The notes beneath the pieces are model-generated. The model ran no database searches. It was given only the letters and a program-made list of their open reading frames with translations, and was not told the DNA's origin. Below are positions 6,747 to 63,859 of a stretch of 64,000 nucleotides of DNA, piece after piece (position 1 is the stretch's first letter; each line of letters begins with the position of its first letter). The position numbers and the translations under genes were made by a program. Origin of the DNA: Brachymonas sp. (GTDB lineage: Bacteria > Pseudomonadota > Gammaproteobacteria > Burkholderiales > Burkholderiaceae_C). The DNA lies in the NCBI GenBank assembly GCA_035906235.1, contig JAMIFN010000132.1:1542-65541 (forward strand), read 5' to 3'.

Positions 6747-6799
6747 TTTTTCAGGCCATTTTTGGCAATTCAGGCCGTAAAACCTGCCTGAATAGCTCC
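6747..6799 (+). repeat. 55-bp dispersed repeat, copy 1
   Basis: Core aaacctgcctgaatagct has 2 mismatches to the consensus AAACCTGCCTGAGCAGCT. A T-tract-rich left arm precedes it. Confidence 0.8.
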
Positions 6800-6835
6800 T
6801 AAAAATGAAGCAGCCTCAACACTGGGTTCAAGCTT

Positions 6836-6888
6836 GTTTTCAGGGTATTTTCGATGTTATAGGCCGTAAAACCTGCCTGAGCAGCTCC
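6836..6888 (+). repeat. 55-bp dispersed repeat, copy 2
   Basis: Exact core with left arm gttttcagggtattttcgatgttataggccgtaa. It is in tandem with copy 1. Confidence 0.85.
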
Positions 6889-6916
6889 CAAATCAGGAGC
6901 AATCAAGCTCCACTCT

Positions 6917-7726
6917 TTACAGCACTTGGTATTTGCTGAACTCTGCCAGCCACTGCACCATTTGCCCGTAGATGCGTGGATTGGCAGCCAAGCATTCGCG
7001 TTGCTCAAGGAAGTCGCTTTCAAACTCGCCCGTGAAATTGCCGATCAGGCCGCCCGCCTCTTGCACCAGCAGCGCGCCTGCTGCCATATCCCAAGATGCC
7101 AGGCCTTTTTCAAAATAACCATCGCTCATGCCCATGGCGACAAAGGCCAAATCCAGCGCGGCAGAACCTGTGCGGCGCACGCCCGCACACTTTTGCATGG
7201 CCAGTTTGTACAGGCGCAAATGCTCATCAATATTGTCCCCAGGGCGCAGCGCCAAACCTGTGGTCAGCAGGCAATCGGACAGCTGGGTGCGTTTGCCCAC
7301 GCGCATACGCTTTTCGTTCAAAAATGCGCCACGGCCTTTGGTGGCGGTGTACAAATCGTTGCGCACGGGGTCGTAAATCACCGCCTGCTCCAGCTTGCCT
7401 GCTACTTGCAGGGCGATGCTGGTGCAATACATGGGAAAACCGTGCAAATAGTTGCTGGTGCCGTCCAGCGGATCGATGATCCAAACGAAATCGGAGCCCT
7501 GATTGCCGTGCTGCGCACCCGACTCTTCGGCCAGCACCGCGTGGCGCGGATAGGCTTCGAGCAGGGTTTCGATGATGATTTTTTCGGCCGCCTCGTCCAC
7601 CTCGCTGACCATGTCGTTGAGCTGCTTGCGCGCTACGCGCACGCTGTCGAGATCCATCGAGGCACGGTTGATGATGCCGCCAGCGGCACGCGCCGCTTTG
7701 ATGGCGATATTGAGCATAGGGTGCAA
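6917..7726 (-). CDS. suhB: inositol monophosphatase family protein SuhB
   Basis: (M)HPMLNIAIKAARAAGGIINRA..., LAEESG and WIIDPLDGTSNY motifs. A TTG start at 7726 reproduces the conserved MHPMLNIA N-terminus. The longer ORF runs to 7804. Confidence 0.85.
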   Translation of the reverse strand: MHPMLNIAIKAARAAGGIINRASMDLDSVRVARKQLNDMVSEVDEAAEKIIIETLLEAYPRHAVLAEESGAQHGNQGSDFVWIIDPLDGTSNYLHGFPMYCTSIALQVAGKLEQAVIYDPVRNDLYTATKGRGAFLNEKRMRVGKRTQLSDCLLTTGLALRPGDNIDEHLRLYKLAMQKCAGVRRTGSAALDLAFVAMGMSDGYFEKGLASWDMAAGALLVQEAGGLIGNFTGEFESDFLEQRECLAANPRIYGQMVQWLAEFSKYQVL

Positions 7727-7961
7727 GCTAGCGCCCGCGACAGCAGGTTTGGAATAGGTGGACATGGCAAATTGTTCAAAGAGCAAAGAAAAGCGCCTAG
7801 ACAAAACAAGGACTAGGCGATTGGAATGGCGCGTATTTTCCCACGAACTGCGCCTGCTTGCACGGCCGATGCGTGAAACAGGAGCGGACTAACTGCCAGC
7901 TCAGTCACTGGCGCTACACTCTGCGCCTGAAAAATACGGATTTGGCGAAAAGGTTTCACGC

Positions 7962-8855
7962 ATGGCAACGAAAAAAAACAAGGGTTTGGGTCTGGGTCTA
8001 GATGCTTTACTAGGCCCTAAAGTGACGGAAACCCCAGCGGGCGATGACAGCCCGCGCGAGCTGAAATTGACGCAAATGGTCGCAGGCCAATACCAGCCAC
8101 GCACGCGCATGGACGAAGGCGCGCTGTACGAGCTGGCCGAAAGCATCAAAAGCCAGGGCATCATGCAGCCGATTTTGGTGCGCAAGCTCCCCGCAGGCGC
8201 GCACGCGGGAAAATACGAAATCATTGCTGGCGAACGGCGTTTTCGCGCCGCCAAATTAGCCGGCTTGACGCAAGTGCCGGTGCTGGTGCGCGAAGTCAGC
8301 GACGAGAACACCGCCATCATGGCGCTGATCGAGAATATGCAGCGCGAAGACCTGAACGCGCTGGAAGAAGCCCAAGGTCTGCAGCGCCTGATCAGCGAAT
8401 TCAAATTGACGCACGAGCAAGCCGCGCAAGCCGTGGGCAAATCGCGTAGCGCCGCCAGCAATTTGATGCGCTTACTCAACCTCACGCCAGCCGTGCAAGA
8501 CATGCTGATGGCGGGCGATATCGATATGGGGCACGCCCGCGCTCTGCTGGCGGTCGATCATGCGCAGCAAATCACCCTGGCGCACGAAATTGCGGGCAAA
8601 AAACTCAGCGTGCGCCAAGCCGAAGCACTGGTCAAAAAAGCCCAACAGCAAGGCGACGGCAGCGCCAAGGTTGGCAAAACCGACAAATCTGGCGACATCA
8701 AACGCATCGAGGAAGAACTGTCGGATTTGCTAATGGCGCAAGTGGCCATCAGCGTGAAAAAAGGCCGTGGCAAAAACCTCAGCGGCAACCTCAGCATCAA
8801 TTTTGGCTCGCTCGATGCGCTCAATGGCCTGATTGAGCGCTTACGCGGCGCCTAA
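7962..8855 (+). CDS. parB: chromosome-partitioning protein ParB (Spo0J type)
   Basis: GLGLGLDALLG, the IIAGERRFRAAKLAG arginine patch, and an HTH (LTHEQAAQAVGKSRSAASNLMRLL). No parA is adjacent. Confidence 0.85.
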   Translation: MATKKNKGLGLGLDALLGPKVTETPAGDDSPRELKLTQMVAGQYQPRTRMDEGALYELAESIKSQGIMQPILVRKLPAGAHAGKYEIIAGERRFRAAKLAGLTQVPVLVREVSDENTAIMALIENMQREDLNALEEAQGLQRLISEFKLTHEQAAQAVGKSRSAASNLMRLLNLTPAVQDMLMAGDIDMGHARALLAVDHAQQITLAHEIAGKKLSVRQAEALVKKAQQQGDGSAKVGKTDKSGDIKRIEEELSDLLMAQVAISVKKGRGKNLSGNLSINFGSLDALNGLIERLRGA

Positions 8856-10327: not shown

Positions 10328-10367
10328 CATGGTGCTGCATCATCGACCTTAAGCTTTGGAAGAACCT

Positions 10368-10732: not shown

Positions 10733-10795
10733 TTTTTGGGTATTTTCAGCATGTTTTTGGCGTTTTAGGCCGCAAAACCTGCCTGAGTAGCTCAC
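10733..10795 (+). repeat. 55-bp dispersed repeat, copy 3
   Basis: tttttgggtattttcagcatgtttttggcgttttaggccgcaaaacctgcctgagtagctcac (1 core mismatch). Confidence 0.85.
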
Positions 10796-10820
10796 TTTTT
10801 TGACGCATAAAAGACCTGAA

Positions 10821-11104
10821 ATTGCGGGTCAAGCCCGCAATGACGCGAAGGCTCGTCATGCCAGCGTAGGCTGGCTTCTACCCCGCTGCGGCCTAGGCTT
10901 TGCAGGTTTACCTTGGGTTTGCGATGGATGGATTCCCGCCTTCGCGGGAATGACGAGGTAGTGGGGTGCAGCTTATTGGGTTTCGTCATTCCCGTGCAAA
11001 CGGGAATCCATGTATTTCGGGTTTCATTATTTCCCCGTAGGTCAAAATCTCGGTTTTTGTACTTCCCCATTGCTTCGCGAAAGATTGCGGCTCAAGCCCG
11101 CAAT
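10821..11104. repeat. cluster of five CGTCAT-flanked hairpin modules (NIME/dRS3-like)
   Basis: attgcgggtcaagcccgcaat-gacg; cgtcat-gccagcgtaggctggc; attcccgccttcgcgggaat-gacg; cgtcat-tcccgtgcaaacgggaat; attgcggctcaagcccgcaat. Confidence 0.8.
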
Positions 11105-11110
11105 CATGCT

Positions 11111-11167
11111 GTGTTTTTCATGCTCAAATATGGCTTTTAGGCCGAAAAACCTGCCTGAGTAGCTATC
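11111..11167 (+). repeat. 55-bp dispersed repeat, copy 4
   Basis: ...ggcttttaggccgaaaaacctgcctgagtagctatc (1 core mismatch). Confidence 0.85.
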
Positions 11168-11176
11168 GTTTTTTAT

Positions 11177-15292: not shown

Positions 15293-15308
15293 ATCCAGTA
15301 TCAAAAAC

Positions 15309-15366
15309 AGAGCTGCTCAGGCAGGTTTGGCGGCCTAAAACCGCTAAAACACCCTTAAAAATGCCC
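15309..15366 (-). repeat. 55-bp dispersed repeat, copy 5 (between ybeD-like and lipB)
   Basis: agctgctcaggcaggttt is the exact reverse core. Confidence 0.85.
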
Positions 15367-15367
15367 T

Positions 15368-16039
15368 ATGAATGACTTTCTCTTGCGCGATCTAGGCTTG
15401 GTAGATTACGCCGCCAGCTACGCCGCTATGCAAAGCTTTACGGCGCAGCGCGAGGCCAGCACGCCAGACGAAGTTTGGTTCTGCCAGCACCCGCCCGTGT
15501 TTACCCAAGGTCTGGCAGGCAAGGCCGAGCACTTGCTGCTAGCGGGCGACATCCCCGTGGTGCAAAGCAATCGCGGCGGGCAAGTCACCTACCACGGCCC
15601 GGGGCAAATCGTGGCCTACCCGCTCATCAACCTGCAGCAGCGCGGCTATTTCGTCAAAGAATATGTCTATAAGTTGGAAGAAAGCCTGATCCGCACCCTG
15701 GCCGAATTTGGCATCACAGGGCACCGCGTGCGCGGCGCGCCTGGGGTCTATGTGCGCCGCTCTGCGCCTGGCAGCCATGCGCGTTTAAGCGAGCTGGAAA
15801 ATAGCATCGCCAACCCCGATTTGGGCAAAATCGCCGCCCTGGGCATCAAGGTCACGCGCCACTACAGCTACCACGGCCTGGCGCTGAATGTGGCCATGGA
15901 TTTGCAGCCCTTTCACCGCATCAACCCCTGCGGCTACGCCGGGCTGGAAACGGTGGACATGGCCAGCTGCGGCGTGCGCCCAGAACTGGCGCAGGTGCAA
16001 AGCGTGCTGGCCGCGCAGTTGCTGCGCTGGTTGGCTTGA
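15368..16039 (+). CDS. lipB: octanoyltransferase
   Basis: HPPVFTQG...[13 protein letters not shown]...KIAALGIK motifs. Confidence 0.9.
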
Positions 16040-16140
16040 TGCGTATTAGTTCAACAATGGGACAATAAGCCTTTTAATCGTAAAATATCGCTCAATGTCC
16101 CATTTTTGGAACAATGCAGCTATTTCAGCTGCATTCAAGC

Positions 16141-16197
16141 TATTTTTTCAATACGAAATAGGCGATTTAAGCCGAAAAACCTGCCTGAGAAGCTATT
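16141..16197 (+). repeat. 55-bp dispersed repeat, copy 6
   Basis: ...gatttaagccgaaaaacctgcctgagaagctattg (1 core mismatch). Confidence 0.8.
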
Positions 16198-16200
16198 GTT

Positions 16201-17568
16201 TTAGGAGTTCATCAAGGCTTCAATCTCGGCCACCGCCACAGGTAGGGCACGGGTCAGCAGCTCGCAGCCCTCTGCCGTGACTGCGGCATCGTCCTCAATG
16301 CGGATGCCGATGTGGTGGAACTGCTCTGGCACCTCGGCGCTGGGGCGCAGATACAGGCCGGGTTCGATAGTCAGCACCATGCCAGGCTGAAGGATGCGGC
16401 TGGCGCCATCGGCCTCGGTATAGCTGCCCGCATCGTGCACATCCAGCCCCAGCCAGTGGCTGGTGCGGTGCATGTAATAGGGCGTGTAGGCTTTGCTGGC
16501 GATGGCGTCTTGCACGCTGCCGTGCTTATCAGCCCGCAAAATGCGCAAATCAAACAAGCCCTGCACCAGCAGCGCCAGCGCGGCCTGGTGCACGCTATCA
16601 AAGCTCACGCCCGGGCGCGTGGCGGCAATCGCGGCCTCTTGCGCGGCCAGCACCACCTCGTACACCGCCCGCTGCGCTGCGCTAAACCGCCCGCCTGCGG
16701 GAAAGGTGCGGGTGATGTCGCTGGCGTAGTTTTGCCATTCGCAAGCCGCGTCTATCAGCACCAATTCATCGGCTTTAAGCGGCGCATTGCCGGCGCGGTA
16801 ATGCAGCACACAGGCATTGGCACCCGCAGCGACGATGCTGGTGTAGGCAGGGGCGGCGCTACCCGCTTGCCGAAAGGCGTGCAGCAGCTCGGCCTCTAAA
16901 TGGAATTCACGCGCATCCTGCCCTGCGCGCAACATACGGGCAGAAGTTTGCATGGCGCGGATATGCCCCTGGGCGCTGATGTCACCGGCGTGGCGCATCA
17001 AGGCGATTTCGCCCGCGTCTTTGTGCAGGCGCATTTCGTCCAGCAGGGTGCAAATATCGCGCAGCACCTGCGGCGCACGCACACCACTGCGGGCACGGTT
17101 GCGCAGTGCGCCCAGCCATTGCTGAATCTGCAGCGGCAGCCCAGCCTGCACCGCAAAAGGAAAATACAGCGTCTCTTGGCCTGCCAACAGTTCTGGCATT
17201 TGTGCATCTAACGCCGCGCTGCTCCACGCCACATCCACCCCCAAAGCGGCTGGTGCCGCGTCTGGTCCCAGGCGGTAGCCATCCCAAATCTCGCGTTCCA
17301 AATCTTTGGGCTGGCACAGCACCGTAGTGCGGCCACTACCACCCTCTAACACCAGCCAAGCCTGCGGCTCTTCAAAACCCGTGAGGTAATAAAAATAGCT
17401 ATCGGCACGATAAGGAAAATGCGCATCGCGGTTGCGCACCTGCTCGGGCGCGGTGGGGATGATGGCCACGCTGCCCGCCCCAAGAGCGCGCGCCAAAGCC
17501 TGGCGGCGCTGGGCGTACACGGCAGCGGCAATATGCGGGGTGGGGGTGTGGGGGTCGAGGAAAGCCAT
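16201..17568 (-). CDS. pepP: Xaa-Pro aminopeptidase (aminopeptidase P)
   Basis: 455 aa with a creatinase-like N-domain and M24 metal ligands (DAACEW..YASDITRT, HWLGLDVHD, TIEPG, IRIEDD). Confidence 0.85.
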   Translation of the reverse strand: MAFLDPHTPTPHIAAAVYAQRRQALARALGAGSVAIIPTAPEQVRNRDAHFPYRADSYFYYLTGFEEPQAWLVLEGGSGRTTVLCQPKDLEREIWDGYRLGPDAAPAALGVDVAWSSAALDAQMPELLAGQETLYFPFAVQAGLPLQIQQWLGALRNRARSGVRAPQVLRDICTLLDEMRLHKDAGEIALMRHAGDISAQGHIRAMQTSARMLRAGQDAREFHLEAELLHAFRQAGSAAPAYTSIVAAGANACVLHYRAGNAPLKADELVLIDAACEWQNYASDITRTFPAGGRFSAAQRAVYEVVLAAQEAAIAATRPGVSFDSVHQAALALLVQGLFDLRILRADKHGSVQDAIASKAYTPYYMHRTSHWLGLDVHDAGSYTEADGASRILQPGMVLTIEPGLYLRPSAEVPEQFHHIGIRIEDDAAVTAEGCELLTRALPVAVAEIEALMNS

Positions 17569-20347: not shown

Positions 20348-20399
20348 CATAGCCATGTTTTTGGCGTTTAACGCCGAAAAACCTGCCTGGGCAGCTCAT
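20348..20399 (+). repeat. 55-bp dispersed repeat, copy 7
   Basis: catgtttttggcgtttaacgccgaaaaacctgcctgggcagctcat (1 core mismatch). Confidence 0.8.
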
Positions 20400-20465
20400 A
20401 TTTTTGATGGTACCCCCCAAAAATATCTGCTCAAAGCTGGAATATCGAGGTAGGCGGCTGAAATC

Positions 20466-20523
20466 CCAGTTTTTAATGACCGAATCAGGCTTTTAGGCCA
20501 CAAAACCTGCCTGAGCAGCTCAC
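20466..20523 (+). repeat. 55-bp dispersed repeat, copy 8
   Basis: ...caggcttttaggccacaaaacctgcctgagcagctcac (exact core). Confidence 0.85.
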
Positions 20524-20635
20524 TTTTTTGCATGAGATAAGCACCACTCTTCACTGCTGGCGTATGATCCGACGCACATGTTGCTGGGGGAGCAGCCCCA
20601 CAGCGGGTGCATTTAGGTAAGAGGGATGGGTAGAT

Positions 20636-30018: not shown

Positions 30019-30109
30019 GCTGCAGGGGGGGCAGAAAAGTATGCTGAAGGAGGGGCGGAAGGGGCATTGTAGAGAAGCCCAGCGCAAGGCTCAGAAAAAC
30101 TACAAAAAA

Positions 30110-30165
30110 GATAGCTACCCAGGCAGGTTTTACAGACTACAAGCCCAAAAACACCCTGAAAATTA
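30110..30165 (-). repeat. 55-bp dispersed repeat, copy 9
   Basis: gatagctacccaggcaggttttacagac...aaaaacaccctgaaaatta (2 core mismatches). It abuts the priA stop codon. Confidence 0.75.
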
Positions 30166-32328
30166 CACCGCCGCGGGATCCACATCCAGCGCCCAGCGCA
30201 GCAAGCCCGGACTGCGTATGCTGACAAATTGGCTGCGCCAGCGCGTGAGGAATTTTTGCAGGGCGGCGCGGTTCTCCGCCTCGACCAAAAGCTGGGCGCG
30301 TTCGGTATTGGCGACGCGCTGCATGGCCATGGGCACGGGGGCGTAGAGCATGACGCCGCCCTCGGCCACCAGCGCCTGCCCCAGATCGCAAGCGGCTTGC
30401 AAAAAGGCTTGCGCCGCCTCTTGCGTGCGTGCCTCAGCCCGCAGCAGGGCCTGAAAGCTAAAGGGCGGCATGGCCGCCATGTGCCGCTCTTGCAATTGGC
30501 TGCTGGCAAAGCCCGCCCAATCGTGGCGCATCAGCCAGGTGAACAGCGGGTGCTCGGGGTTAAAGGTTTGCACCAGCATTTGCGCCTTGCCGCTTAAATC
30601 GGCATCGCGCCCAGCACGGCCAGCCGCTTGCATCAGCAGGGCAGCACTGCGTTCAGGGGCGCGAAAGTCGGCGGCAAACAGGCCGCCATCGGGGTTGATG
30701 GCCGCCACCAGGGTGATGCGGCGAAAGTCGTGCCCCTTGGCCACCATTTGCGTGCCCACCAACACATCCACCGCGCCGCTGTGCAGCTGCTCTAGGTGCT
30801 GGCTCAGGCCGTCTTTGCCTTTAACGCTGTCGGCGTCCATGCGCAGCACACGGGCGGGCTGCCCATCGGGGCGCTGCACGCCAGCTAGCAGGGCGCTGAT
30901 TTCTTCTTCCAATTTTTCGGTGCCACGGCCTAGGGGGGCAATGTCTAAATTGCCGCATTCGGGGCAGGCGCGGGGCGTGGCTTGGGCATCGCCGCAGTGG
31001 TGGCAGCGCAGGCTGCGGTCGATTTTGTGAAAAACCTGAAAAGCGCTGCAATGGTTGCAGGCGCTTTTCCAGCCGCATTCGCCGCAGCTGAGCACGGGCG
31101 CATAGCCACGGCGGTTGAGCAACAACAGGGCTTGCTCGCCGCGCGCAATGCGCTCTTGCAAAGCAGCCAGCAAATAGCTGGAGATAACTGTGCCCTTGGG
31201 CTGCAAACGCATATCGACCAAGCGCACGGGGGTGAGTTGGCCCGCGCCTATGCGCTCGGGCAATTCTTGCAACTGATAGCGCCCGCTTTGCGCGGCCTGC
31301 CAGCTTTCTAAGCTGGGCGTGGCCGAGCCTAAAACCACGGTGCAGCTGCCTGCCGCCACGCTGTGCAGGCGCGCACTTTCTAGTTTTGCGCGGTACACCG
31401 CCAAATCGCGGGCTGAATGGCGTGCGCCGTCTTGCGCTTTGTAGCTGGCGTCGTGTTCTTCATCAACCACAATCAAACGCAAATCCACCAGGCTGGCAAA
31501 CACCGCCAAGCGCGTGCCCAGCACAATGCGTGCGCCCCCGCTGTGCGCCGCCAGCCAGGCGCTTGATCGCTCAGCCGCGGTCATGCCGCTGTGCATGCTG
31601 ACGACCGCCGCCGCGCCCAAATGGGCAAAGCGGGCGCGAAACTGCCCTAAGAGTTGGGGCGTGAGGTTGATCTCGGGCACCAGCACCAGCACCTGCGCCG
31701 TCGCTGCCGCCGCCAGCGTGGCCGCAGCGGCCTGCATATACACCTCGGTCTTGCCGCTGCCTGTGCGCCCAAACAGCAGCAGGGGTTTGCTGTCGGTTTG
31801 GCTTTGTGCGGCAGTGATGGCTTGCAGGGCAGCTGTTTGCGCGGGGTTTAAGGTTTTTTCAGGCTGTTTTTGCGTGTTTAAGGCGGAAACGCTGCCTGAG
31901 CAGCTCTCATTTTTGATGCTGTTTTCTGGATTTTCGAGCTTGGCGAGCTTTTTGAGCTTGCGTGCCAATTGCTCGGCACTCCAGTCTTTCAGCTGGGGCG
32001 GCAAGGCGGCCAGCGCCACTTCGCCCAAGCTGCGCTGGTAGTAACGGGCGGCAAAGGCGACCAGCTCCCGCCAGCTGGCAGGCAGGGGGGCAATGCCATC
32101 CAAAACCGTGCTGATGGCTTTGAGTTTGCCCACATCCAGCCCATCGGCCGTGGTGTGCGCGGTATCGGCAGCCTTGGCCTGCCCCCAGACCAGGCCCAGC
32201 ACCTCGCGCCGCCCCAAAGGCACCCGCACCAAGCTGCCCAACGCTAAGGGCGCAGGGTGGGTATAACTGAGCAGGGCGGGCAGGCGGCTATGCGCTGGCA
32301 GCGCCACCAAAACGCTGAAAACAGGCAC
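30163..32328 (-). CDS. priA: primosomal replication-restart helicase PriA
   Basis: Walker A GRTGSGKTEVY, DEEHD box, Cys-rich Zn region (CGECGW..CNHCS...CHHCG...CPECG) and a winged-helix N-terminus. Confidence 0.9.
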   Translation of the reverse strand: MPVFSVLVALPAHSRLPALLSYTHPAPLALGSLVRVPLGRREVLGLVWGQAKAADTAHTTADGLDVGKLKAISTVLDGIAPLPASWRELVAFAARYYQRSLGEVALAALPPQLKDWSAEQLARKLKKLAKLENPENSIKNESCSGSVSALNTQKQPEKTLNPAQTAALQAITAAQSQTDSKPLLLFGRTGSGKTEVYMQAAAATLAAAATAQVLVLVPEINLTPQLLGQFRARFAHLGAAAVVSMHSGMTAAERSSAWLAAHSGGARIVLGTRLAVFASLVDLRLIVVDEEHDASYKAQDGARHSARDLAVYRAKLESARLHSVAAGSCTVVLGSATPSLESWQAAQSGRYQLQELPERIGAGQLTPVRLVDMRLQPKGTVISSYLLAALQERIARGEQALLLLNRRGYAPVLSCGECGWKSACNHCSAFQVFHKIDRSLRCHHCGDAQATPRACPECGNLDIAPLGRGTEKLEEEISALLAGVQRPDGQPARVLRMDADSVKGKDGLSQHLEQLHSGAVDVLVGTQMVAKGHDFRRITLVAAINPDGGLFAADFRAPERSAALLMQAAGRAGRDADLSGKAQMLVQTFNPEHPLFTWLMRHDWAGFASSQLQERHMAAMPPFSFQALLRAEARTQEAAQAFLQAACDLGQALVAEGGVMLYAPVPMAMQRVANTERAQLLVEAENRAALQKFLTRWRSQFVSIRSPGLLRWALDVDPAAV
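31856..31915 (+). repeat. 55-bp dispersed repeat, copy 10 (inside the priA CDS)
   Basis: ttttcaggctgtttttgcgtgtttaaggcggaaacgctgcctgagcagctctc. On the priA sense strand it is translated as ..ESCSGSVSALNTQKQPEK.. Confidence 0.7.
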
Positions 32329-36224: not shown

Positions 36225-36242
36225 AGCATCACTTTAAAAACT

Positions 36243-36292: not shown

Positions 36293-38107
36293 TTAATCAT
36301 CCACTTGCAAGATGGCCAGGAAGGCCTCTTGCGGCACTTCCACACTGCCGATTTGCTTCATGCGTTTTTTACCGGCTTTTTGTTTTTCTAACAGTTTGCG
36401 TTTGCGCGTGATGTCGCCGCCATAGCATTTGGCCAAGACATTTTTGCGCATGGCTTTGACGGTTTCGCGCGCGATGATGTTGCCGCCAATGGCTGCTTGA
36501 ATCGCCACATCGAACATTTGGCGGTCGATGATTTCGCGCATTTTGGCGACCACGGCGCGGCCACGGTATTGCGACTGGCTGCGGTGCACGATGATGGACA
36601 GGGCATCGACGCGCTCGCCATTGAGCATGATGTCCACCTTGACCACATCCGAGGCGCGGTATTCTTTGAACTCGTAATCCATGCTGGCGTAACCACGGCT
36701 GACGGATTTGAGTTTGTCGAAAAAGTCCAGCACGATTTCGCCCAGGGGCATGTCATAAGTCAGCACCACCTGGCGGCCTTTGTAGGCCATATTCAGCTGC
36801 ATGCCGCGCTTTTGGTTGCACAGGGTCATGACGGGGCCGACATATTCTTGCGGCATAAAGATATGCACTTCCACAATCGGCTCGCGAATCTCTTCGATTT
36901 TGCCGACTTCAGGCATTTTGCTGGGGTTTTCCACCATCAGCGTTTCGGGCTCTTTGCCGCCCGTGACCACCTCGTACACCACGCTGGGCGCGGTGGTGAT
37001 CAGGTCTTGGTCAAACTCGCGCTCCAGGCGCTCTTGCACAATTTCCATGTGCAAAAGACCCAGGAAACCGCAGCGGAAACCAAAGCCCAGCGCCTGCGAC
37101 ACCTCAGGCTCGTATTGCAGCGCAGCGTCATTTAACTTCAGCTTTTCCAGCGCGTCGCGCAGCTGATCGTATTCGCTGGCTTCTACGGGGTAAAGCCCCG
37201 CAAAAACTTGGGGCTGCACTTGCTTGAAACCTGGCAAGGCCACTTCGGCAGGACCCAGGTTGTTCGGCATTTTTTTCTCTAGCGTGACGGTGTCGCCCAC
37301 CTTGGCCGCTTGCAGCTCTTTGATGCCGCAAATGATGTAGCCCACTTCGCCCGCGTGCAGGGCGTTGCGCGGCTGGTCGGCGGGGGTAAAAACACCAATG
37401 CTATTGGCCTCATACGCCGCACCGGTGGCCATCAGTTTGATGCGTTCGTTTTTCTTCAAACTGCCATCGACCACACGCACCAGCATGACGACGCCGACAT
37501 AGGTATCAAACCAGCTGTCGATAATCATGGCGCGCAGCGGCGCATCAGGATTGCCCCGGGGCGGCGGCACCTTGGCCACCACCATTTCCAAAATTTCGTC
37601 TATGCCCATGCCGGTTTTGGCTGAGCAGGGGATGGCCTCGCTGGCGTCAATGCCGATGACATCTTCGACCTCTTTGCGCGCGCCCTCAGGGTCGGCCTGG
37701 GGCAAATCCATTTTGTTGAGCACGGTAAAAACCTCGACGCCCAAATCAATGGCGGTGTAGCAATTGGCCACGGTTTGCGCCTCAACGCCTTGGCTGGCAT
37801 CGACCACCAGCAATGCGCCCTCGCAGGCCGAGAGGCTGCGCGAGACTTCGTAGCTAAAGTCCACATGCCCAGGGGTGTCGATCAGATTGAGGTTGTAGAT
37901 TTGTCCGTCTTTGGCCTTGTACTGCAGCGCGGCGGTTTGTGCCTTGATGGTGATGCCGCGCTCTTTTTCAATGTCCATGGAGTCGAGCACCTGCGCACTC
38001 ATTTCCCGATCAGACAGGCCGCCGCAGCGCGAAATCAGGCGATCGGCCAAGGTGGATTTGCCGTGGTCGATGTGCGCGATGATGGAAAAGTTGCGAATGT
38101 GCTGCAT
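36293..38107 (-). CDS. lepA: translation elongation factor 4 (LepA)
   Basis: [24 protein letters not shown]..., DTPGHVDF and NKMD. The track ORF runs on to 38872, but that extension is a non-coding read-through. Confidence 0.9.
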
Positions 38108-40531: not shown

Positions 40532-40675
40532 GGATGCGTATCCTAGTAGGGGTCGTGGTGTAGAAAAATCAGTGAAAGGCAGGACACAGTATGCGGCAGC
40601 TCAAAATACGCACGCAGCATGGCTGTGGCTCGCCATCATAGCGCAGGCCAGAGGCTTTCCGTTCGCTATGTATTT

Positions 40676-40732
40676 AATAGCTGCTCAGGCAGGTTTTACG
40701 GCCTTAAATGCCAAAAACATCCTGAAAATATA
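40676..40732 (-). repeat. 55-bp dispersed repeat, copy 12
   Basis: aatagctgctcaggcaggttttacggccttaaatgccaaaaacatcctgaaaata (exact core, near-consensus full length). Confidence 0.9.
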
Positions 40733-40790
40733 AGCACAACTTGGCCTACAATGCCCAGACATCTATAGACCAATACGGGAGACAAATGCT

Positions 40791-44456: not shown

Positions 44457-44488
44457 AGCTTTTTCCTCTATTTGATTAATATGATTTT

Positions 44489-44547
44489 GATAGCTGCTCA
44501 GGCAGGTTTTACGGCCTAAAAACCCAAAACCATGCCAAGAAACATAC
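44489..44547 (-). repeat. 55-bp dispersed repeat, copy 13 (between ribBA and ribH)
   Basis: gatagctgctcaggcaggttttacggcctaaaaacccaaaaccatgcc (exact core). Confidence 0.85.
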
Positions 44548-44561
44548 CTAAAAACAGGACT

Positions 44562-48800: not shown

Positions 48801-49034
48801 ATAAATCAGATTGGGCGTACCGTTGATCTCGCGCTCGAGCATCTCAATCACGGTTTCCTCAATCATCTTGGCGGAGGCGCCTGGGTAGGCCACATTCACC
48901 GTCACGGTCGGTGGCGCCACAGTGGGGTATTGCTCAACCGGCAGGCGGCTCAAACCCAAGGCGCCCACGATCATGACGATGAGCGCAATCACCCAAGCAA
49001 AAACAGGGCGGTCAATAAAGAAACGGGGTAGCAT
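45852..49034 (-). CDS. RND multidrug efflux permease (AcrB/MexB family)
   Basis: 1060 aa, MLPRFFIDRPVFAWVIALIVM N-terminus, 12-TM architecture with two large periplasmic loops. Confidence 0.9.
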   Translation of the reverse strand: MLPRFFIDRPVFAWVIALIVMIVGALGLSRLPVEQYPTVAPPTVTVNVAYPGASAKMIEETVIEMLEREINGTPNLIYMESSSLSNGTGSIALSFEPGTDADAAQIEVQNRIARVQPRLPAIVSQNGVRVDQARTNLLMVVAMLGEKEEDLEAVADYASRTVIPELQRIKGMGQVTMYAAERAMRIWIDPAKLQAYGLSVAEVNAAIREQNAQISAGILGDTPFVSGQTTSATVVAPGQLKTVEEFQHIILRDDGQGATVRLADVARVELGAQSYANGASLNGKPAVMVGLMLSNDGNALSVANEVRTRMADMSKYFPKGMSWKAPYTTDKFVSISIKKVAMTLLEAMALVFLVMFLFLQNWRYTIIPTIVVPIALLGTFSVLQALGYSVNVLTMFGMVLVIGIVVDDAIVVVENVERVMREEGLGPVPATRKAMDQISGAVIGMTLVLISVFVPLTFFSGAVGNIYRQFAVVMASSIAFSGLMALILTPALCATLLKPVPQGEHEKKTGFFGAFNRIFDRNRDRYTGAIGRFLGASMRMAVVYAALLAVGVFVMMRLPSGFIPSEDQGSMFINLQLPPGATLERTAHALAQAEKVLMEQPEVESVVTVKGFSFSGQGQNTAFGFIALKDWSERQGPGQDASSVAGRVTGKLMSLSDGFLLAMNPPAIPALGRISGFALRLQDRNSQGQEALLAARNQLVALAQKSPMLAGVRAEGIEDAPQLQLDINRDVAAAQGVSMAAINTVLSTSLGSTYVNDFPNAGRLQRVIVQAADHARMEVDDIMKLPVLNKKGQTVLLGTVVTAHWISGPMMTVRYNGYPTMRITGSAAPGHSSGDAMAEMERLVTQLPPGFGYEWSGQSREEKLAGNSAIYVYLFAVLAVFLLLAALYESWTIPLAVLLSVPLGLLGVASGVWMRGMESDVYFQIGLVTIIGLSAKNAILIVEFAKDLHATGMTALQAAAHAAHMRFRPILMTSFAFMLGVVPLYFASGASSAAQRAIGTGVFWGMLVGTILAVFFVPTFYVLVRKFFPISGVEQERALEHAKEAGITAVTTGQHEGSSA

Positions 49035-49087
49035 TTTTATAGCCTTTTTCGCGTTTTATGGCGTAATAACTGCCTGAGCAGCTATCA
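49035..49087 (+). repeat. 55-bp dispersed repeat, copy 14 (between the RND adaptor and pump genes)
   Basis: tttttatagcctttttcgcgttttatggcgtaataactgcctgagcagctatc (2 core mismatches). Confidence 0.75.
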
Positions 49088-49113
49088 ATATAGTAGTTAT
49101 CAACACCCGTCTA

Positions 49114-51264: not shown

Positions 51265-53312
<2,048 letters not shown>

Positions 53313-54914: not shown

Positions 54915-54977
54915 AAAAAGCCATTCTTAAAGCCTTGTAGGGCTGTAGGCGGCTAAAAACCTGCCTGAGCAGCTATT
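54915..54977 (+). repeat. 55-bp dispersed repeat, copy 16
   Basis: ...gtaggcggctaaaaacctgcctgagcagctatt (exact core). Confidence 0.8.
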
Positions 54978-55007
54978 AAAATAATAGTGAAAATATTTTC
55001 AGTGCGC

Positions 55008-57953: not shown

Positions 57954-59663
57954 ATGAATTGCGAGCGCATCCAAGGTTTAGCCGTCTCCCGTGGCATTGC
58001 CATAGGCCGCGCTGTGCTGCTGGCACACAGCCGCAGCAGTGTGCGCCACTACTACATCAGCGCCGAGCAGGTGGAGGCCGAAATTGCCCGCCTAGCGCAG
58101 GCGCGGCGTGTGGTGGTGGCCGAGTTAGAGGCGCTGCAAGCGGCCTTGCCAGACGACGCGCCGCCTGAGCTGGCGGGGATTTTGGAAGTGCATATGCTGC
58201 TCTTGCAAGACCCCGATCTGATCGCCAGCATCAAGCAATGGGTGAGTGAGCGCCACTACAACGCCGAATGGGCGTTGACGCGCCAGCTGGAAATTTTGGT
58301 GCGCCAGTTTGAGGACATGGATGATGACTATCTGCGTGAACGCAAGGCCGATTTAGAGCAGGTGGTCGAGCGCGTGTTGCAGGCCATGCAAGCGGCGCAA
58401 GGCGGCATCAGCGCCATGCGCCAGGCCGAGGCCTCGGCGCAGGCCCTGCTGGGCGGTGGGCTGGGCGAGCACGAAGCGGTGATTTTGGTGGCGCACGATT
58501 TGATGCCCGCCGATATGCTGCAGTTCAAATCCTCGGTGTTTTCGGGCTTTATCACCGATGTGGGCGGCCCCACGGCGCACACCGCCATCGTGGCGCGCAG
58601 CATGGACATCCCCGCTGTGGTGGGCACACGCGTGGCCAGCCAACAGCTGCGCCAAGACGATTTGCTGATTTTGGATGGCGATGCGGGCCTAGTATTGGTC
58701 AACCCCAGCCCTGCAACCCTAGAGGAATACCGCCGCCGCCAAGCGCAAGAGTTGCACAACCGCGCCCGTCTAGAGCAAATCAAACACACGCCTTGCCGCA
58801 GTGCCGATGGCCATGCTGTCGAGCTTTTGGCTAATATCGAGCAACCACAAGACGCCGCCTTGGCCCTGGCTGCGGGCGCGGTCGGTGTGGGGCTGTTTCG
58901 TAGCGAGTTTTTATTTATGGGGCGTGGCGGCGAGCTGCCTGACGAAGAAGAGCAATACCTGGCCTACAAACAGGCTGTGGAAGGGATGCAAGGCCTGCCC
59001 GTCACCATCCGCACGCTCGATATCGGTGCGGATAAGCCCTTGGATGGCAACCACGCCGCCCACCCCGAATGCGACCCCGAGGACAACCCCGCCCTGGGCT
59101 TGCGAGCCATTCGTTGGAGCCTAGCCGAGCCCATCATGTTTCGCACGCAGCTGCGGGCGCTCTTGCGGGCGGCGCAGCACGGCACGGTAAAAATCCTCAT
59201 CCCCATGCTGTGCTGCGAAGCGGAGATTCTGCAGGTCTTCGAGCAATTGGCGCAAAGCCGCGCCGAGCTGGATGCGCGGGGGCAGGCTTACGGTGCGGTA
59301 CAAATGGGCGCCATGATTGAGATCCCCGCCGCTGCGCTGCAGGCAGATCGCTTCTTGGACTTCTTCGATTTTCTATCGATAGGCACCAACGACCTGATTC
59401 AGTACACCCTGGCCATCGATCGCACCGATGAACGCCTGATGCACCTGTACAACCCGCGCCACCCAGCGGTGCTGCAGCTCATTGCGCACACCATCGCGGC
59501 GGCTAATCGGCGCGCTAAGGCGGTGAGTGTCTGCGGCGAAATGGCGGGCGATACCGCCTACACCCAGCTCTTGCTGGGCTTGGGGCTGCGCAGTTTTTCT
59601 ATGCACCCGGTGCAATTGCTGCCGGTGAAGGCGGTGGTGCTGGGTAGCCGTGTGCAAGCCTAG
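57954..59663 (+). CDS. ptsI: phosphoenolpyruvate-protein phosphotransferase (PTS enzyme I)
   Basis: GGPTAHTAIVARSMDIPAVVG (active-site His), IGTNDLIQYTLA and CGEMAGD. No N-terminal GAF domain. AAGGGGG lies upstream of the ATG. Confidence 0.9.
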   Translation: MNCERIQGLAVSRGIAIGRAVLLAHSRSSVRHYYISAEQVEAEIARLAQARRVVVAELEALQAALPDDAPPELAGILEVHMLLLQDPDLIASIKQWVSERHYNAEWALTRQLEILVRQFEDMDDDYLRERKADLEQVVERVLQAMQAAQGGISAMRQAEASAQALLGGGLGEHEAVILVAHDLMPADMLQFKSSVFSGFITDVGGPTAHTAIVARSMDIPAVVGTRVASQQLRQDDLLILDGDAGLVLVNPSPATLEEYRRRQAQELHNRARLEQIKHTPCRSADGHAVELLANIEQPQDAALALAAGAVGVGLFRSEFLFMGRGGELPDEEEQYLAYKQAVEGMQGLPVTIRTLDIGADKPLDGNHAAHPECDPEDNPALGLRAIRWSLAEPIMFRTQLRALLRAAQHGTVKILIPMLCCEAEILQVFEQLAQSRAELDARGQAYGAVQMGAMIEIPAAALQADRFLDFFDFLSIGTNDLIQYTLAIDRTDERLMHLYNPRHPAVLQLIAHTIAAANRRAKAVSVCGEMAGDTAYTQLLLGLGLRSFSMHPVQLLPVKAVVLGSRVQA

Positions 59664-59669
59664 TTTGAC

Positions 59670-59726
59670 GGTATTTTAGGCATGTTTTAGGGGTTTTAGG
59701 CCGTAAAACCTGCCTGAGTAGCTATC
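59670..59726 (+). repeat. 55-bp dispersed repeat, copy 17
   Basis: ggtattttaggcatgttttaggggttttaggccgtaaaacctgcctgagtagctatc (three phased TTTTAGG units, 1 core mismatch). Confidence 0.9.
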
Positions 59727-59739
59727 TTTTTATGCTTTA

Positions 59740-62433: not shown

Positions 62434-62465
62434 GCAGTACTCACTATTTACTTCACTATTTATTT

Positions 62466-62520
62466 AATAGCTGCTCAGGCAGGTTTTGCGGCCTGAAAGC
62501 CTTAAAAGGCATTGAAAACG
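62466..62520 (-). repeat. 55-bp dispersed repeat, copy 18
   Basis: aatagctgctcaggcaggttttgcggcctgaaagccttaaaaggcattgaaaacg (exact core). Confidence 0.85.
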
Positions 62521-62537
62521 CTATTGTAAAACGCCCT

Positions 62538-63026
62538 ATGACTGCAGCACGCTTTAAACCTGGTGTCACCGTTGGCGCCATCATCGAAAAAGACGGCAAA
62601 TTTTTGCTGGTAGAAGAGCGCACCAGCCAAGGTTTGCGCCTGAACAACCCCGCAGGCCATATCGAACCCGCCGAAGACCTGCTGCAAGGCTGCACGCGCG
62701 AAGTGCTGGAAGAAACCGCCTTTGACTTTGTGCCCACTGCCCTGCTGGGTGTTTACCTTAGCAGCTATCCGCAGCACGACGCTGCCCTGCATGGCGATTT
62801 GCGCAGCCGCCCGCACTATCTGCGCTTGGCCTTTGTGGGCGAACTGGGGGCTTTTCACCCCGAGCGCCAGCTAGACGCGGGCATTGTGCGCACCGTGTGG
62901 CTGACTGCCGATGAGATTCGGCAAGCGCCCAATCTGCGCAGCCCCACTGTGCTGCAGTGCTTAGAAGACTATTTAAGCGGGCAACGCCACCCGCTTGCGC
63001 TGTTGCGGCAGGTGGCCTGTGATTAA
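62538..63026 (+). CDS. NUDIX hydrolase
   Basis: The Nudix box is approximately GHIEPAEDLLQGCTREVLEETAF (GX5EX7REVXEEXG-like). Confidence 0.8.
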   Translation: MTAARFKPGVTVGAIIEKDGKFLLVEERTSQGLRLNNPAGHIEPAEDLLQGCTREVLEETAFDFVPTALLGVYLSSYPQHDAALHGDLRSRPHYLRLAFVGELGAFHPERQLDAGIVRTVWLTADEIRQAPNLRSPTVLQCLEDYLSGQRHPLALLRQVACD

Positions 63027-63028
63027 GG

Positions 63029-63859
63029 CTAAGGTGACGGTGACGCGAGAGCTGGCTCCAATACCTGCGCCAGCGCGATGTACTCAGCTACAGGCACCTC
63101 TTCGGCGCGGCGCTGCACATCAAAATCGCCGCTAAAGCCCTGCTCATCCAACCAGCGCCCCAGGGTGTTGCGCAGAATTTTGCGGCGCTGGCTAAAGGCT
63201 ACGCGCACCAAGTCCTCCAGCAATTGAGGCGATAAAGCGGCAGGCTGGGCATAGGGCAGCATCCTGACGACGGCACTATCGACGCGGGGTGGTGGATCAA
63301 AAGCCTCAGGCGGCACCAAGAGGAAATTGTCCATCGCATAGCGCCACTGCAGCATGACGGACAAACGCCCATAGGCGGCAGTGGCAGGCTGCGCCACCAT
63401 ACGCTCGATCACCTCTTTTTGCAGCATAAAGTGCTGGTCTTGCACCAAATGCGCATAGGGCAGCAAGTGAAACAAAATGGGTGAGGAGATGTTGTAGGGC
63501 AAATTACCCACAACGCGCAACTTGAGCGCTTCACTTTCAATAGCTATCTGGGCAGGTTTTTCGGAGGCTTCTGGCAAATTCCCTGCAAAGACCGCCGCGA
63601 AATCCACTTTTAGCACATCGCTGGCAATCACGGCTACGCCTTGGCGCTGCTGCCAATGGGCAATCAGGTCGCGATCTAGCTCGACTACTGTGATGTGCCC
63701 GCTGTGCTCGAGCAAGGGCTGAGTCAGCGCCCCCAGGCCGGGGCCAATTTCTACCAGCCGCTGACCGGGCTGGGGCGCAATGGTACACACGATGCTGTCG
63801 ATGACGCTCTGATCGACCAAAAAATGCTGGCCAAAGCGTTTGCGGGGAATATGTTTCAT
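63029..63859 (-). CDS. rsmA: 16S rRNA (adenine1518/1519-N6)-dimethyltransferase
   Basis: [21 protein letters not shown] and [14 protein letters not shown] motifs. Confidence 0.9.
63541..63585 (-). repeat. degenerate 55-bp dispersed repeat, copy 19 (inside the rsmA CDS)
   Basis: The sense strand reads ccgaaaaacctgcccagatagctattg (5 core mismatches, flanks conserved). It is translated as ..[10 protein letters not shown].. Confidence 0.45.

Follow-up and report, generated by a model that had tools for sequence, protein, structure and literature searches.

A 64-kb stretch of a Comamonadaceae genome, referred to here as the window, carries a family of short, dispersed elements that recur about every 3-4 kb and combine a nearly constant core with A/T tracts held in phase with the DNA helix. 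Our leading explanation, put forward tentatively, is that a formerly mobile element may now be maintained as a protein-anchored node of bent DNA.

Anatomy and distribution of the element

Allowing up to three mismatches, the core AAACCTGCCTGAGCAGCT has 18 matches in the window where 0.13 would be expected by chance, a count reached in none of 100 shuffles of the window. An nhmmer profile search recovered the same 18 copies, with E-values from 1e-20 to 1e-12, and added a weak nineteenth copy at 63525-63564 (E = 2e-4). By core matching and profile search, then, the original prediction of a dispersed family with 19 copies in 64 kb is real, as are its claim that both orientations are present (12 plus, 7 minus), its direct pairs (6742/6826 and 20349/20463), and its pair around another repeat (10738/11101). 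Two figures are revised. Eight copies, not nine, have the exact 18-mer, and the unit, described as 55 bp, has a conserved part of about 67 bp (positions -35 to +32 relative to the core), beyond which A/T phasing extends the span to about 110 bp. The copies are listed below with nhmmer E-values; related genomes are given by handles such as L047.

Copy 1, 6742..6813, plus: core 6780-6797, 2 mismatches, E = 1.6e-17; leads a direct pair and starts where the type IV pilus ATPase gene (4872-6746) ends, at its stop codon; missing from the orthologous place in L047
Copy 2, 6826..6904, plus: exact core 6869-6886, E = 7.3e-19; second of the direct pair, with convergent genes on either side; orthologous copy in L047
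Copy 3, 10738..10808, plus: core 10775-10792, 1 mismatch, E = 1e-20; 9 bp past gene 10318-10728, left of a 290-bp hairpin-rich insert
Copy 4, 11101..11174, plus: core 11147-11164, 1 mismatch, E = 3e-17; ends 2 bp ahead of the start of an MFS transporter gene (11177)
Copy 5, 15295..15373, minus: exact core 15311-15328, E = 3.8e-18; occupies the entire 75-bp spacer between a DUF493 gene and lipB, antisense to both
Copy 6, 16132..16211, plus: core 16177-16194, 1 mismatch, E = 2.1e-17; separates the convergent lipB and aminopeptidase P genes
Copy 7, 20349..20412, plus: core 20379-20396, 1 mismatch, E = 1.1e-16; first of a direct pair, adjoining an IS1-like transposase fragment
Copy 8, 20463..20534, plus: exact core 20503-20520, E = 2.4e-16; second of the direct pair, bordering a lower-GC island
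Copy 9, 30098..30175, minus: core 30113-30130, 2 mismatches, E = 3.2e-16; directly 3' of the priA stop codon, same direction as the genes; site occupied in L163, spacer of just 33 bp in L162
Copy 10, 31849..31920, plus: inside priA (30163-32328, minus strand), E = 7.6e-16
Copy 11, 36228..36306, minus: exact core 36245-36262, E = 2.6e-19; occupies the 68-bp lepA-lepB spacer, sense; filled in L163, 35-bp spacer in L162
Copy 12, 40662..40742, minus: exact core 40679-40696, E = 1.1e-20; in the divergent spacer separating 40007-40531 (minus) from 40791-41360 (plus), genes syntenic with ssb and the cob(I)alamin adenosyltransferase gene in L162 and L163; ortholog in L163, absent in L162
Copy 13, 44475..44551, minus: exact core 44492-44509, E = 5.7e-18; in the ribBA-ribH spacer, sense; same place in L071 and L073
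Copy 14, 49023..49101, plus: core 49066-49083, 2 mismatches, E = 5.7e-16; runs antisense to the operon in the acrA-acrB spacer, taking up all 79 bp; also at this place in L071 and L073
Copy 15, 52028..52102, plus: inside nadE (51226-52977), sense, E = 1.7e-14
Copy 16, 54916..54990, plus: exact core 54957-54974, E = 1.3e-12; flanked by two minus-strand genes (TerC family, ferredoxin reductase) and antisense to each
Copy 17, 59660..59732, plus: core 59706-59723, 1 mismatch, E = 4.6e-19; at the stop codon of gene 57888-59663, between convergent genes; orthologs in L159 and L161
Copy 18, 62452..62532, minus: exact core 62469-62486, E = 6.6e-19; 18 bp upstream of a hydrolase gene (61402-62433, minus strand); orthologs in L159, L161 and L047
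Copy 19, 63525..63564, minus: degenerate, inside ksgA/rsmA (63029-63859, minus strand), E = 2e-4

The core carries about 2 bits per position, a profile partly inflated by ascertainment because the copies were gathered through their core. Around it lie tracts that are at least 95% A/T at -33..-29, -21..-18, -12..-8, 0..2, and +22..+25, with weaker A/T peaks at about -51, -41, +34, +46, and +56. A and T are interchangeable inside the tracts (at +22/+23, T 0.51 and A 0.48-0.49), which points to indirect readout of DNA shape rather than readout of bases. T-tracts at helical spacing had been noticed before; they prove to belong to a more extended pattern with a period of 10.85 bp (bootstrap 95% range 10.75-10.90) and an amplitude of 0.086, against no more than 0.013 in shuffles. 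The left and right arms are in phase to within 44 degrees (-44 degrees). This right-hand phasing had been overlooked, as had the copies inside genes, the deep conservation of position, and a dyad inside the core.

The description of the unit as not a palindrome holds for the whole, although three short local dyads occur inside it: TTTTAGGCCGTAAAA, CTGC-N4-GCAG, and, in about 40% of copies, CTAT-N7-ATAG. Consensus folding of 18 and of 97 copies produced only a 4-bp CTGC/GCAG pair set and no conserved hairpin. Conservation covers the half-sites CTGC and GCAGCT but not the CTGA at the center, which can vary and is CCAA, CTGG, CAGA, CCAG, or TCAG in coding copies and GCAA in the version from Variovorax sp. 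PCZ-1. In the window, the core never appears without its arms (outside the 19 copies there are no 12-bp sub-cores and one stray 10-mer), and the profile search found no arm-only or decayed-core copies.

Density is one copy per 3.4 kb in the window, or one cluster per roughly 4 kb, and about every third intergenic spacer is occupied; the lower-GC island (20.6-28 kb) and the first 6.7 kb have none. Clusters are spaced more evenly than random choice of spacers would give (CV 0.48 versus 0.79, P=0.015), a result of modest significance from one window. Orientation relative to genes is random: contexts among 106 copies are co-directional sense (21), co-directional antisense (17), convergent (15), and divergent (14), and the bias relative to genes for which a check had been suggested is not seen in them. 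Neither promoter nor terminator signals were found at the copies, and no inverted pairs acting as terminators were seen. Related versions of the element occur in Variovorax, Rhodoferax, and Brachymonas genomes. The family had not been recognized when first noticed, which fits our finding no match in Rfam (a suggested check, here run at E up to 1) or in the plasmid and phage sequences searched, and no paper describing it in the literature searched.

Copies within genes and conservation of sites

Three of the 19 copies lie within coding sequence, in priA, nadE, and ksgA, in each case in frame, in a linker or loop, and with the TGA codon of the core replaced. Copy 10 is antisense to priA, in the linker joining the 3'-DNA-binding and helicase domains. 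The reverse complement of its core translates as SCSGSV, of which SCSG is retained by 10 relatives within an otherwise variable linker; the segment is missing from sister lineages and outgroups. Copy 15 falls in the linker joining the CN-hydrolase and NAD-synthase domains of NadE, where its core translates as KPAQVA, TGA having become CAA. The same place in L071, L073, and L075 has CAA, TGG, and AGA, and all four species agree at every third position of the core codons, compared with 36% identity gene-wide. Copy 19, in the sense direction, encodes KPAQIA in a surface loop of KsgA, with five mismatches and TGA replaced by CAG. Fuller copies occupy its site in L008, L159, and L160, and the loop is 11-15 residues longer than in Burkholderia and E. 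coli structures. Intergenic spacers are 68-84 bp if filled, versus 33-35 bp in L162. The absence of the PriA segment from sisters and outgroups, the longer KsgA loop, and the short L162 spacers indicate that the unit entered as an insertion; on these sequence comparisons, its entry into PriA and KsgA is best described as that of a block, not as point mutation in place.

Copies are found at the same sites in relatives of just 64-87% identity. Over 20 orthologous comparisons at 11 sites, identity is 88% in the core and tract positions remain A/T in 85%, while other element positions show 58% identity, close to that of nadE third codon positions (53-68%) and thus approximately the synonymous rate. 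Retention of sites across genera, even in frame in housekeeping genes, looks like the mark of a selected DNA-level signal. In L162 (CAZJBX), however, there are no copies over 22 syntenic kb, against 19 in the 64-kb window, and any nodes that the element forms therefore cannot be essential.

A candidate bent-DNA node and its rivals

Selection, we propose, would keep an old, once-mobile unit as a site acting at the level of DNA: a docking point, set in pre-bent DNA, for a putative protein that recognizes a specific sequence and is probably dimeric. The protein would read the core half-sites (A/C)CTGC and GCAGCT, 4 bp apart. With A/T tracts on both sides at a 10.85-bp period and the same helical phase, about five turns to the left and three to four to the right, some 110 bp would be curved or anisotropically flexible in one direction and could wrap or close over the bound protein. 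The outcome would be fixed, bent nucleoprotein nodes that could organize supercoiled loops or local nucleoid structure. Such nodes would work in either orientation and would not stop transcription, and the element could for that reason be tolerated inside operons and even genes. Observed directly in the sequences are the anatomy, the phasing, the A/T interchangeability, the unequal conservation at orthologous sites, the arrival by insertion, and the indifference to orientation; the binding, the bending or wrapping (bending from sequence), and the chromosome-organizing role are what we infer from them.

The original prediction had read the element as a non-palindromic family whose phased tracts would favor intrinsic bending or binding of a nucleoid protein. 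That reading is the best supported, though only in part: the interchangeable, phased tracts and the conservation of tracts together with core agree with it, while the candidates IHF and Fis are not supported. Neither protein's E. coli consensus, as we know it, occurs in the copies. A near-invariant core of 14-18 bp exceeds the specificity most architectural proteins need, an observation that weighs against a node. So do the genic copies, which an architectural site does not need, although they would fit a need for regular spacing.

The element might instead be a DNA-uptake signal, which we think unlikely. Some part of the type IV pilus or competence apparatus would favor core-bearing DNA, phased A/T tracts would aid kinking, and preferential uptake of conspecific DNA, with recombination, would maintain roughly a thousand intact copies through molecular drive, without any need for a function at each site. 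The window includes a type IV pilus ATPase gene, and much of the distribution agrees with uptake: very high density on both strands, fairly even spacing, and no copies in the lower-GC island at 20.6-28 kb or the first 6.7 kb. The genic copies sit in poorly constrained linkers and loops, avoid the stop codon, and are more conserved as DNA than as protein; orthologous sites are conserved, and related lineages have their own versions. In the Haemophilus USS, too, the core lies next to helically phased A/T tracts. The element also has CTGCCTGA in common with what we take to be the Simonsiella DUS dialect. An A/T transversion at position +3 separates that dialect from Kingella's, and overlapping dyad pairs suggest that a dimer does the recognizing (PMC3630211). 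Several features argue against uptake. At 67-110 bp the unit far exceeds known signals, which measure 10-32 bp; coding sequence holds only 3 of the 19 copies; PriA and KsgA were entered by block insertion; and no inverted pairs form terminators. Known uptake sequences abound as bare cores within genes, whereas here the core is never alone. In the literature searched we found no report of uptake specificity outside Neisseriaceae and Pasteurellaceae.

It is similarly doubtful that the family is a selfish, non-autonomous mobile element, MITE-like or REPIN-like and without host function, whose core was the sequence recognized by a trans-acting transposase and whose copies are left over from past bursts. 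The whole-unit insertions in the PriA linker and KsgA loop, the filled and short empty spacers, copy 1 being present in the window and missing from L047, and the difference in abundance between the window and L162 all suit such an origin. So do the tandem and inverted pairs that occur and the copies associated with an IS fragment or with another repeat. Genes entered in frame bring to mind the Rickettsia palindromic elements, which lie in surface loops and linkers of housekeeping proteins and are retained at orthologous positions. Yet there are no terminal inverted repeats, no hairpin, no definable target duplication, and no linked transposase, and the plasmid and phage searches gave no match. 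Neutral relics, moreover, should decay uniformly, yet copies have stayed in place through genus-level divergence, the core at 88% and neighboring element positions at 58%. The lack of arm-only or decayed-core copies in the window also counts against selfish relics.

That the element is a strong DNA gyrase site, a counterpart of the E. coli BIME-2 where the enzyme would wrap some 130 bp and relieve positive supercoiling between transcription units, seems quite improbable. BIME-2 repeats are strong gyrase sites that do not depend on transcription, and the E. coli gyrase motif spans 130 bp with flanks of 10.75-bp periodicity, interpreted as AT turned toward the protein (PMC6379681). The element's 10.85-bp period over about 110 bp resembles that motif, and its intergenic location and orientation independence fit. 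Its arms, however, are in phase (-44 degrees), while those of the published consensus are 242 degrees apart and those of the Mu strong gyrase site 197; the classical cleavage consensus, as we know it, is absent from the copies; and gyrase's degenerate reading of DNA leaves an invariant, asymmetric 18-bp core unexplained. Least probable is an RNA element (processing sites, AU-rich translation enhancers for cistrons lacking a Shine-Dalgarno, or small RNAs), for although many copies are intra-operonic and must be transcribed (acrA-acrB, ribBA-ribH, lepA-lepB, DUF493-lipB), several downstream start codons have no obvious Shine-Dalgarno as read from the sequence, and the right-hand dyad has G-T pairs that would become G-U on the forward strand only, orientation relative to transcription is random, neither strand has conserved or covarying structure, Rfam gave no match, copies lie between convergent genes and in coding sequence, and A/T interchangeability in the tracts is a property of duplex DNA, not of RNA.

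Comparison with known repeats and signals

Like the REP and BIME sequences of Enterobacteria and Pseudomonas, the element is short, abundant, chromosomal, intergenic, sometimes clustered, and present inside operons in both orientations. Host proteins (gyrase, IHF) are believed to bind those repeats, which would contribute to genome organization (PMC6379681). REPs are GC-rich imperfect palindromes of 20-40 bp with a GTAG or CGTC tag and a link to RAYT transposases, whereas in the element phased A/T tracts dominate and a conserved hairpin is lacking; it also occurs within genes, in frame, and its positions persist from genus to genus. The MITEs Correia (of Neisseria), ERIC, and RUP are likewise small, non-coding, multi-copy residents of intergenic spacers that may be co-transcribed with neighboring genes, but they have terminal inverted repeats and target-site duplications, neither of which is seen in the element. 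Rickettsia palindromic elements share dispersed in-frame insertion into housekeeping proteins at orthologous positions; they are palindromes of 100-150 bp that show neither A/T phasing nor an invariant core, and they are seen as selfish DNA in decay.

Strong gyrase sites (Mu SGS, pSC101) and the 130-bp motif resemble the element in a footprint of 110-130 bp whose non-periodic center is flanked by sequence with an A/T-G/C period of about 10.8 bp. The phase relation of the arms differs, and the center is invariant and asymmetric in the element, degenerate and symmetric in gyrase sites. With USS and DUS the element shares a strongly conserved core on both strands, kilobase-scale density, lineage-specific versions, avoidance of the stop codon, and tolerance in weakly constrained parts of proteins, and with USS also the helix-phased A/T tracts beside the core. 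It differs from both in a unit three to ten times longer, a mostly intergenic location, a core that never stands alone, a lack of terminator-forming inverted pairs, and entry into genes by block insertion.

Abundance and anatomy of the repeat

A search for the 18-mer AAACCTGCCTGAGCAGCT, the near-invariant core of the dispersed element, found 18 matches in the window at up to three mismatches, where 0.13 are expected and none of 100 shuffles came near that number, so the abundance first described in the window is confirmed; exact cores number eight rather than the nine first counted. A profile built from the core copies recovered all 18, with E-values between 1e-20 and 1e-12, and added a degenerate nineteenth at 63525-63564. 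The copies divide between the plus (12) and minus (7) strands, and the core is over-represented on both, as in USS/DUS uptake sequences. Two direct pairs (6742/6826 and 20349/20463) and a pair flanking another repeat (10738..10808 and 11101..11174) occur as first described. At 19 copies per 64 kb, 16 of which lie between genes, the element is abundant, extragenic, and chromosomal in the manner of REP/BIME repeats. Plasmid and phage collections contain no similar sequence, and an origin from either source is rejected on that ground. None of the Rfam 15 covariance models matched at its gathering score, and E-values up to 1 gave only two matches, both away from the copies, in keeping with a family that was not recognized on first inspection. 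The literature searched has the core string in no paper, and describes neither such a repeat nor uptake sequences in Burkholderiales.

The anatomy of the element was read from 94-114 copies, found in the window and on related contigs and anchored on the core. The conserved stretch runs from about -35 to +32, counted from the first core base, and its clearest feature is a set of A/T tracts, not base identity. Positions -33..-29, -21..-18, -12..-8, 0..2, and +22..+25 are at least 95% A/T, with weaker peaks near -51, -41, +34, +46, and +56. A and T swap freely within the tracts (T 0.51 and A 0.48-0.49 at +22/+23, for instance). Averaged over the copies, the A/T profile repeats every 10.85 bp (bootstrap 95% range 10.75-10.90), with an amplitude of 0.086 compared with at most 0.013 after shuffling. 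The left and right arms lie in the same phase around the core, within 44 degrees; helically spaced T-tracts, originally attributed to the left arm alone, are therefore found on both sides of the core.

The core includes the dyad CTGC-N4-GCAG, which becomes a perfect AGCTGC-N4-GCAGCT where position 3 is G. Its half-sites are kept, and the central CTGA is altered wherever needed, as seen in the coding copies and the Variovorax version described below. Single-strand consensus folds, computed for each strand from sets of 18 and 97 copies, showed no conserved structure beyond a 4-bp CTGC/GCAG stem, so the unit as a whole is rightly called non-palindromic. A right-hand dyad, CTAT-N7-ATAG, is present in about 40% of copies, reaches at least 5 bp in only 26%, and has no covariation across copies. 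No complementary ends, and hence no terminal inverted repeats, were found within the unit, whose two ends carry different conserved sequences.

Placement of copies and other features of the window

Intergenic copies often occupy the entire spacer, as between a DUF493 gene and lipB (75 bp), between lepA and lepB (68 bp), and between acrA and acrB (79 bp). Orientation with respect to neighboring genes is random over 106 copies from the window and related contigs, with counts of 21 for co-directional sense, 17 for co-directional antisense, 15 for convergent, and 14 for divergent. A consensus scan of six copies scored one as terminator-like and none as promoter-like; ordinary intrinsic terminators occur elsewhere in the window. 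Random orientation, together with the terminator and promoter scan, excludes a role as promoter, terminator, or oriented RNA element. A structured RNA is likewise rejected, since the copies have neither a conserved fold nor an Rfam match. The copies form 15 clusters, spaced more evenly than random picks from the 48 spacers of the window (CV 0.48 versus 0.79, P=0.015). The first 6.7 kb of the window and a lower-GC signaling island at 20.6-28 kb are free of copies.

Several other features of the window were noted. Positions 1-3580, repeat-free, have its lowest GC (49%) and encode a DUF1302/DUF1329 outer-membrane pair and a small unknown ORF. The lower-GC block at 20636-28005 (about 53%) is the copy-free island mentioned above. 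Its products are a CHASE2 Ser/Thr kinase, a PP2C phosphatase, an FHA protein, a CHASE2 adenylate/guanylate cyclase, and a class-II phosphodiesterase-like protein, and it was probably gained by horizontal transfer; an ORF at 19863-20270 (minus strand), with the N-terminus of an IS1/IS1595-type zinc-ribbon transposase, adjoins it. Antisense within ribBA, at 45465-45568 (plus strand), is a sub-threshold Rfam match to the Vibrio antisense RNA AS9 (43.9 bits, gathering score 50, E=2e-4), and the 171-bp spacer preceding ribBA gave no FMN riboswitch.

Between copies 3 and 4, at 10809-11100, lies an insert of about 290 bp that is rich in hairpins. Near-identical 21-bp palindromes, ATTGCGGGTCAAGCCCGCAAT (10821-10841) and ATTGCGGCTCAAGCCCGCAAT (11086-11106), bound it, further stem-loops of the GGGAAT/ATTCCC type lie inside, and the whole resembles a second repeat family of REP or MITE type. 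In one relative, P0275, the PriA linker has an extra 45-residue insert (…FVIASEAKQS…RRCAPRNDE…) that, judged by eye, resembles a hairpin repeat in translation and may belong to the same type.

Copies inside genes and conservation among relatives

Three copies of the element lie within the reading frames of housekeeping genes.

Copies of the element inside genes of the window
priA: antisense, in frame, in the linker joining the 3'-binding and helicase domains; the core, in reverse complement, encodes SCSGSV
nadE: sense, in frame, in the interdomain linker; the core encodes KPAQVA, with TGA changed to CAA
ksgA: sense, in frame, in a surface loop; the core encodes KPAQIA

In the otherwise variable PriA linker, ten relatives (76-84% identity) retain (E)SCSG(S/R)(F/I/V). 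The segment of about 15-20 residues is absent from the PriA homologs P0282, of a sister lineage, and P0283, and from those of Hydrogenophaga, Ramlibacter, Rhodoferax, and Caenimonas. In KsgA, the loop exceeds that of the Burkholderia and E. coli structures by 11-15 residues, and one close relative has lost the segment again. Because the PriA segment is missing from the sister lineage and outgroups, and the KsgA loop is longer, the unit is shown to have entered both proteins as a block insertion. NadE is less clear, and is set aside as a clean insertion case, because its linker exceeds those of outgroups by only about 2 residues. After insertion, the DNA is held under stronger constraint than the protein: third positions of the nadE core codons are identical in four species, compared with 36% of comparable columns gene-wide, and the nadE T-tract is retained though the encoded amino acids differ.

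Window-encoded proteins match, with full identity, proteins listed by NCBI under a 'Brachymonas sp.' MAG. The closest named relatives of the NadE, KsgA, and PriA proteins of the window belong to Comamonadaceae (56-75% identity). A scan of one genome per species found the exact 18-mer in dozens of contigs from a few uncultured Burkholderiaceae/Burkholderiales MAGs, its other matches being single bare 18-mer sites at chance level. A search of metagenome contigs with XseA returned homologs only 37-51% identical. In 20.8 kb of Variovorax sp. PCZ-1 there are five copies of a version that reads gccggcata-GAATCTGCGCAA-nnn-GCTAT-N7-ATAGC and also occurs in another Brachymonas MAG, and the version in a Rhodoferax genome has the left gcctctagccc and right GCTAT-N7-RTAGC in common; all three genomes carry the ksgA-loop copy. 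Because related versions occur in Variovorax, Brachymonas, and Rhodoferax genomes, the family is widespread in Comamonadaceae, with lineage-specific cores. Downstream of ksgA in the PCZ-1 contig is a comM-type Mg-chelatase gene, a typical attachment region of the Tn7 family, and a Tn7-like module (TnsA-like protein, Mu-type transposase, and TniB; 12293-15832) adjoins it.

Relatives ranging from 87% DNA identity to 64% NadE identity have orthologous copies at ribBA-ribH, acrA-acrB, lepA-lepB, and cob-ssb, within nadE, ksgA, and priA, after priA, upstream of a hydrolase gene, and downstream of an aldehyde dehydrogenase gene. Pairwise comparison at 11 sites (20 comparisons) gave 88% identity in the core and showed tract positions still A/T in 85% of cases, against 58% identity, the level of synonymous sites, for the remaining positions of the element. 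Such a contrast would not be expected of a neutral relic. A 22-kb contig syntenic with 28-41 kb of the window (CAZJBX010000020.1; PriA 73% identical) has no copies and spacers of 5-35 bp, and the same genome does carry the family on another contig. The cob-ssb spacer of the copy-free contig aligns to element flanks as though a 15-bp core had been excised, and its lepA-lepB spacer holds CCTGCCTTGCCTGAAC; these resemblances may be eroded remnants or chance. In comparisons of filled with empty spacers (lepA-lepB, cob-ssb, and downstream of priA and of pilB), the flanks are too diverged to define target-duplication junctions.

Candidate functions and comparison with known systems

The data call for a duplex-DNA signal that acts in either orientation, tolerates transcription and translation, and is constrained at each site. 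Tentatively, we propose that the element acts as a bent-DNA node anchored by a protein. The half-sites of the core would be recognized by a dimer, around which the phased A/T tracts would bend about 110 bp in a single direction; fixed nodes roughly every 4 kb would result, serving chromosome organization. Anatomy, phasing, constraint, insertion origin, and indifference to orientation are shown, and protein binding, bending, and a part in chromosome organization are inferred. IHF and Fis, originally put forward as candidate binding proteins, find no sites: the IHF consensus of E. coli, WATCAANNNNTTR, matches none of 94 copies, and the E. coli Fis consensus and the classical gyrase cleavage consensus are also absent from the copies. 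The sequence TTTAGGCCGTAAA imperfectly resembles a KorB-type operator. An orphan ParB as binding partner is only a thought.

The window encodes a full-length ParB (7962-8855; N-terminal, HTH, and dimerization domains) with no parA directly upstream, assigned by NCBIfam only as generic ParB. The 157-bp spacer upstream of it (7805-7961) contains a 10-bp inverted repeat, TGCGTGAAAC … GTTTCACGCA, with arms about 85 bp apart that each resemble a parS half-site, the second abutting the start codon.

An unlikely alternative to the bent-DNA node is a DNA-uptake signal, which would account for maintenance without per-site function, for the coding copies, and for the lineage-specific versions. USS/DUS cores stand bare throughout coding and non-coding DNA, whereas only three of the 19 copies here lie in genes and the core is never alone: outside the full copies the window has no 12-mer of it and a single 10-mer. 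The length of the unit and the block insertions also fit poorly. Were uptake nonetheless the function, Comamonadaceae would be candidates, at low probability, for a third, independent DNA-uptake specificity system, with a long composite signal of 18-bp core and helically phased A/T tracts, about a thousand sites per genome kept by transformation-driven molecular drive, and versions comparable to the DUS dialects of Neisseriaceae. Also doubtful is a purely selfish relic of a mobile element, which explains the insertions but leaves the differential conservation unexplained. A strong gyrase site, of the BIME-2 kind, is improbable. The published gyrase motif spans 130 bp with a flank period of about 10.75 bp (PMC6379681), close to the period and footprint found here, but the arm-to-arm phase, -44 degrees here, is 197-242 degrees for the Mu site and the published 133-bp consensus. 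An RNA role is most improbable, as it conflicts with both the random orientation and the free exchange of A and T within the tracts.

If the bent-DNA node reading holds, many freshwater and wastewater Betaproteobacteria place a conserved DNA-shape signal in about one third of their intergenic spacers, and run it even through the reading frames of priA, nadE, and ksgA. Selection would then act on DNA geometry and a short anchor sequence, not on RNA or protein, and the element would offer a handle on chromosome organization or self-DNA recognition over distances of a few kilobases. Related versions are carried by cultured organisms (Variovorax sp. PCZ-1, GCA_018413605.1, and Rhodoferax sp., CP059068.1), and a copy-poor sister lineage provides a comparison for a partner-protein search. 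The 18-mer can be used as a lineage marker in metagenome binning, and the element accounts for odd low-complexity inserts in otherwise conserved proteins.

Among known systems, REP/BIME repeats and uptake signals are closest in working, but the element lacks defining properties of each: the stable stem-loop palindrome (20-40 bp) of the former and the bare cores of the latter. REP repeats are also linked to a RAYT (TnpA-REP) gene; among those window genes that were annotated, no Y1 transposase was seen, the carrier genomes being represented by contig fragments. Unlike MITEs, it has no terminal inverted repeats; unlike IHF-binding repeats of the RIP/BIME-1 type, it has no IHF consensus; and its arm phase differs from that of the gyrase motif. 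In-frame insertion into protein loops is shared with the Rickettsia RPE, but the palindromic unit of the latter is missing. What distinguishes the element is helical A/T phasing around an asymmetric, invariant core, conserved across genera, with in-frame copies under constraint at the level of DNA.
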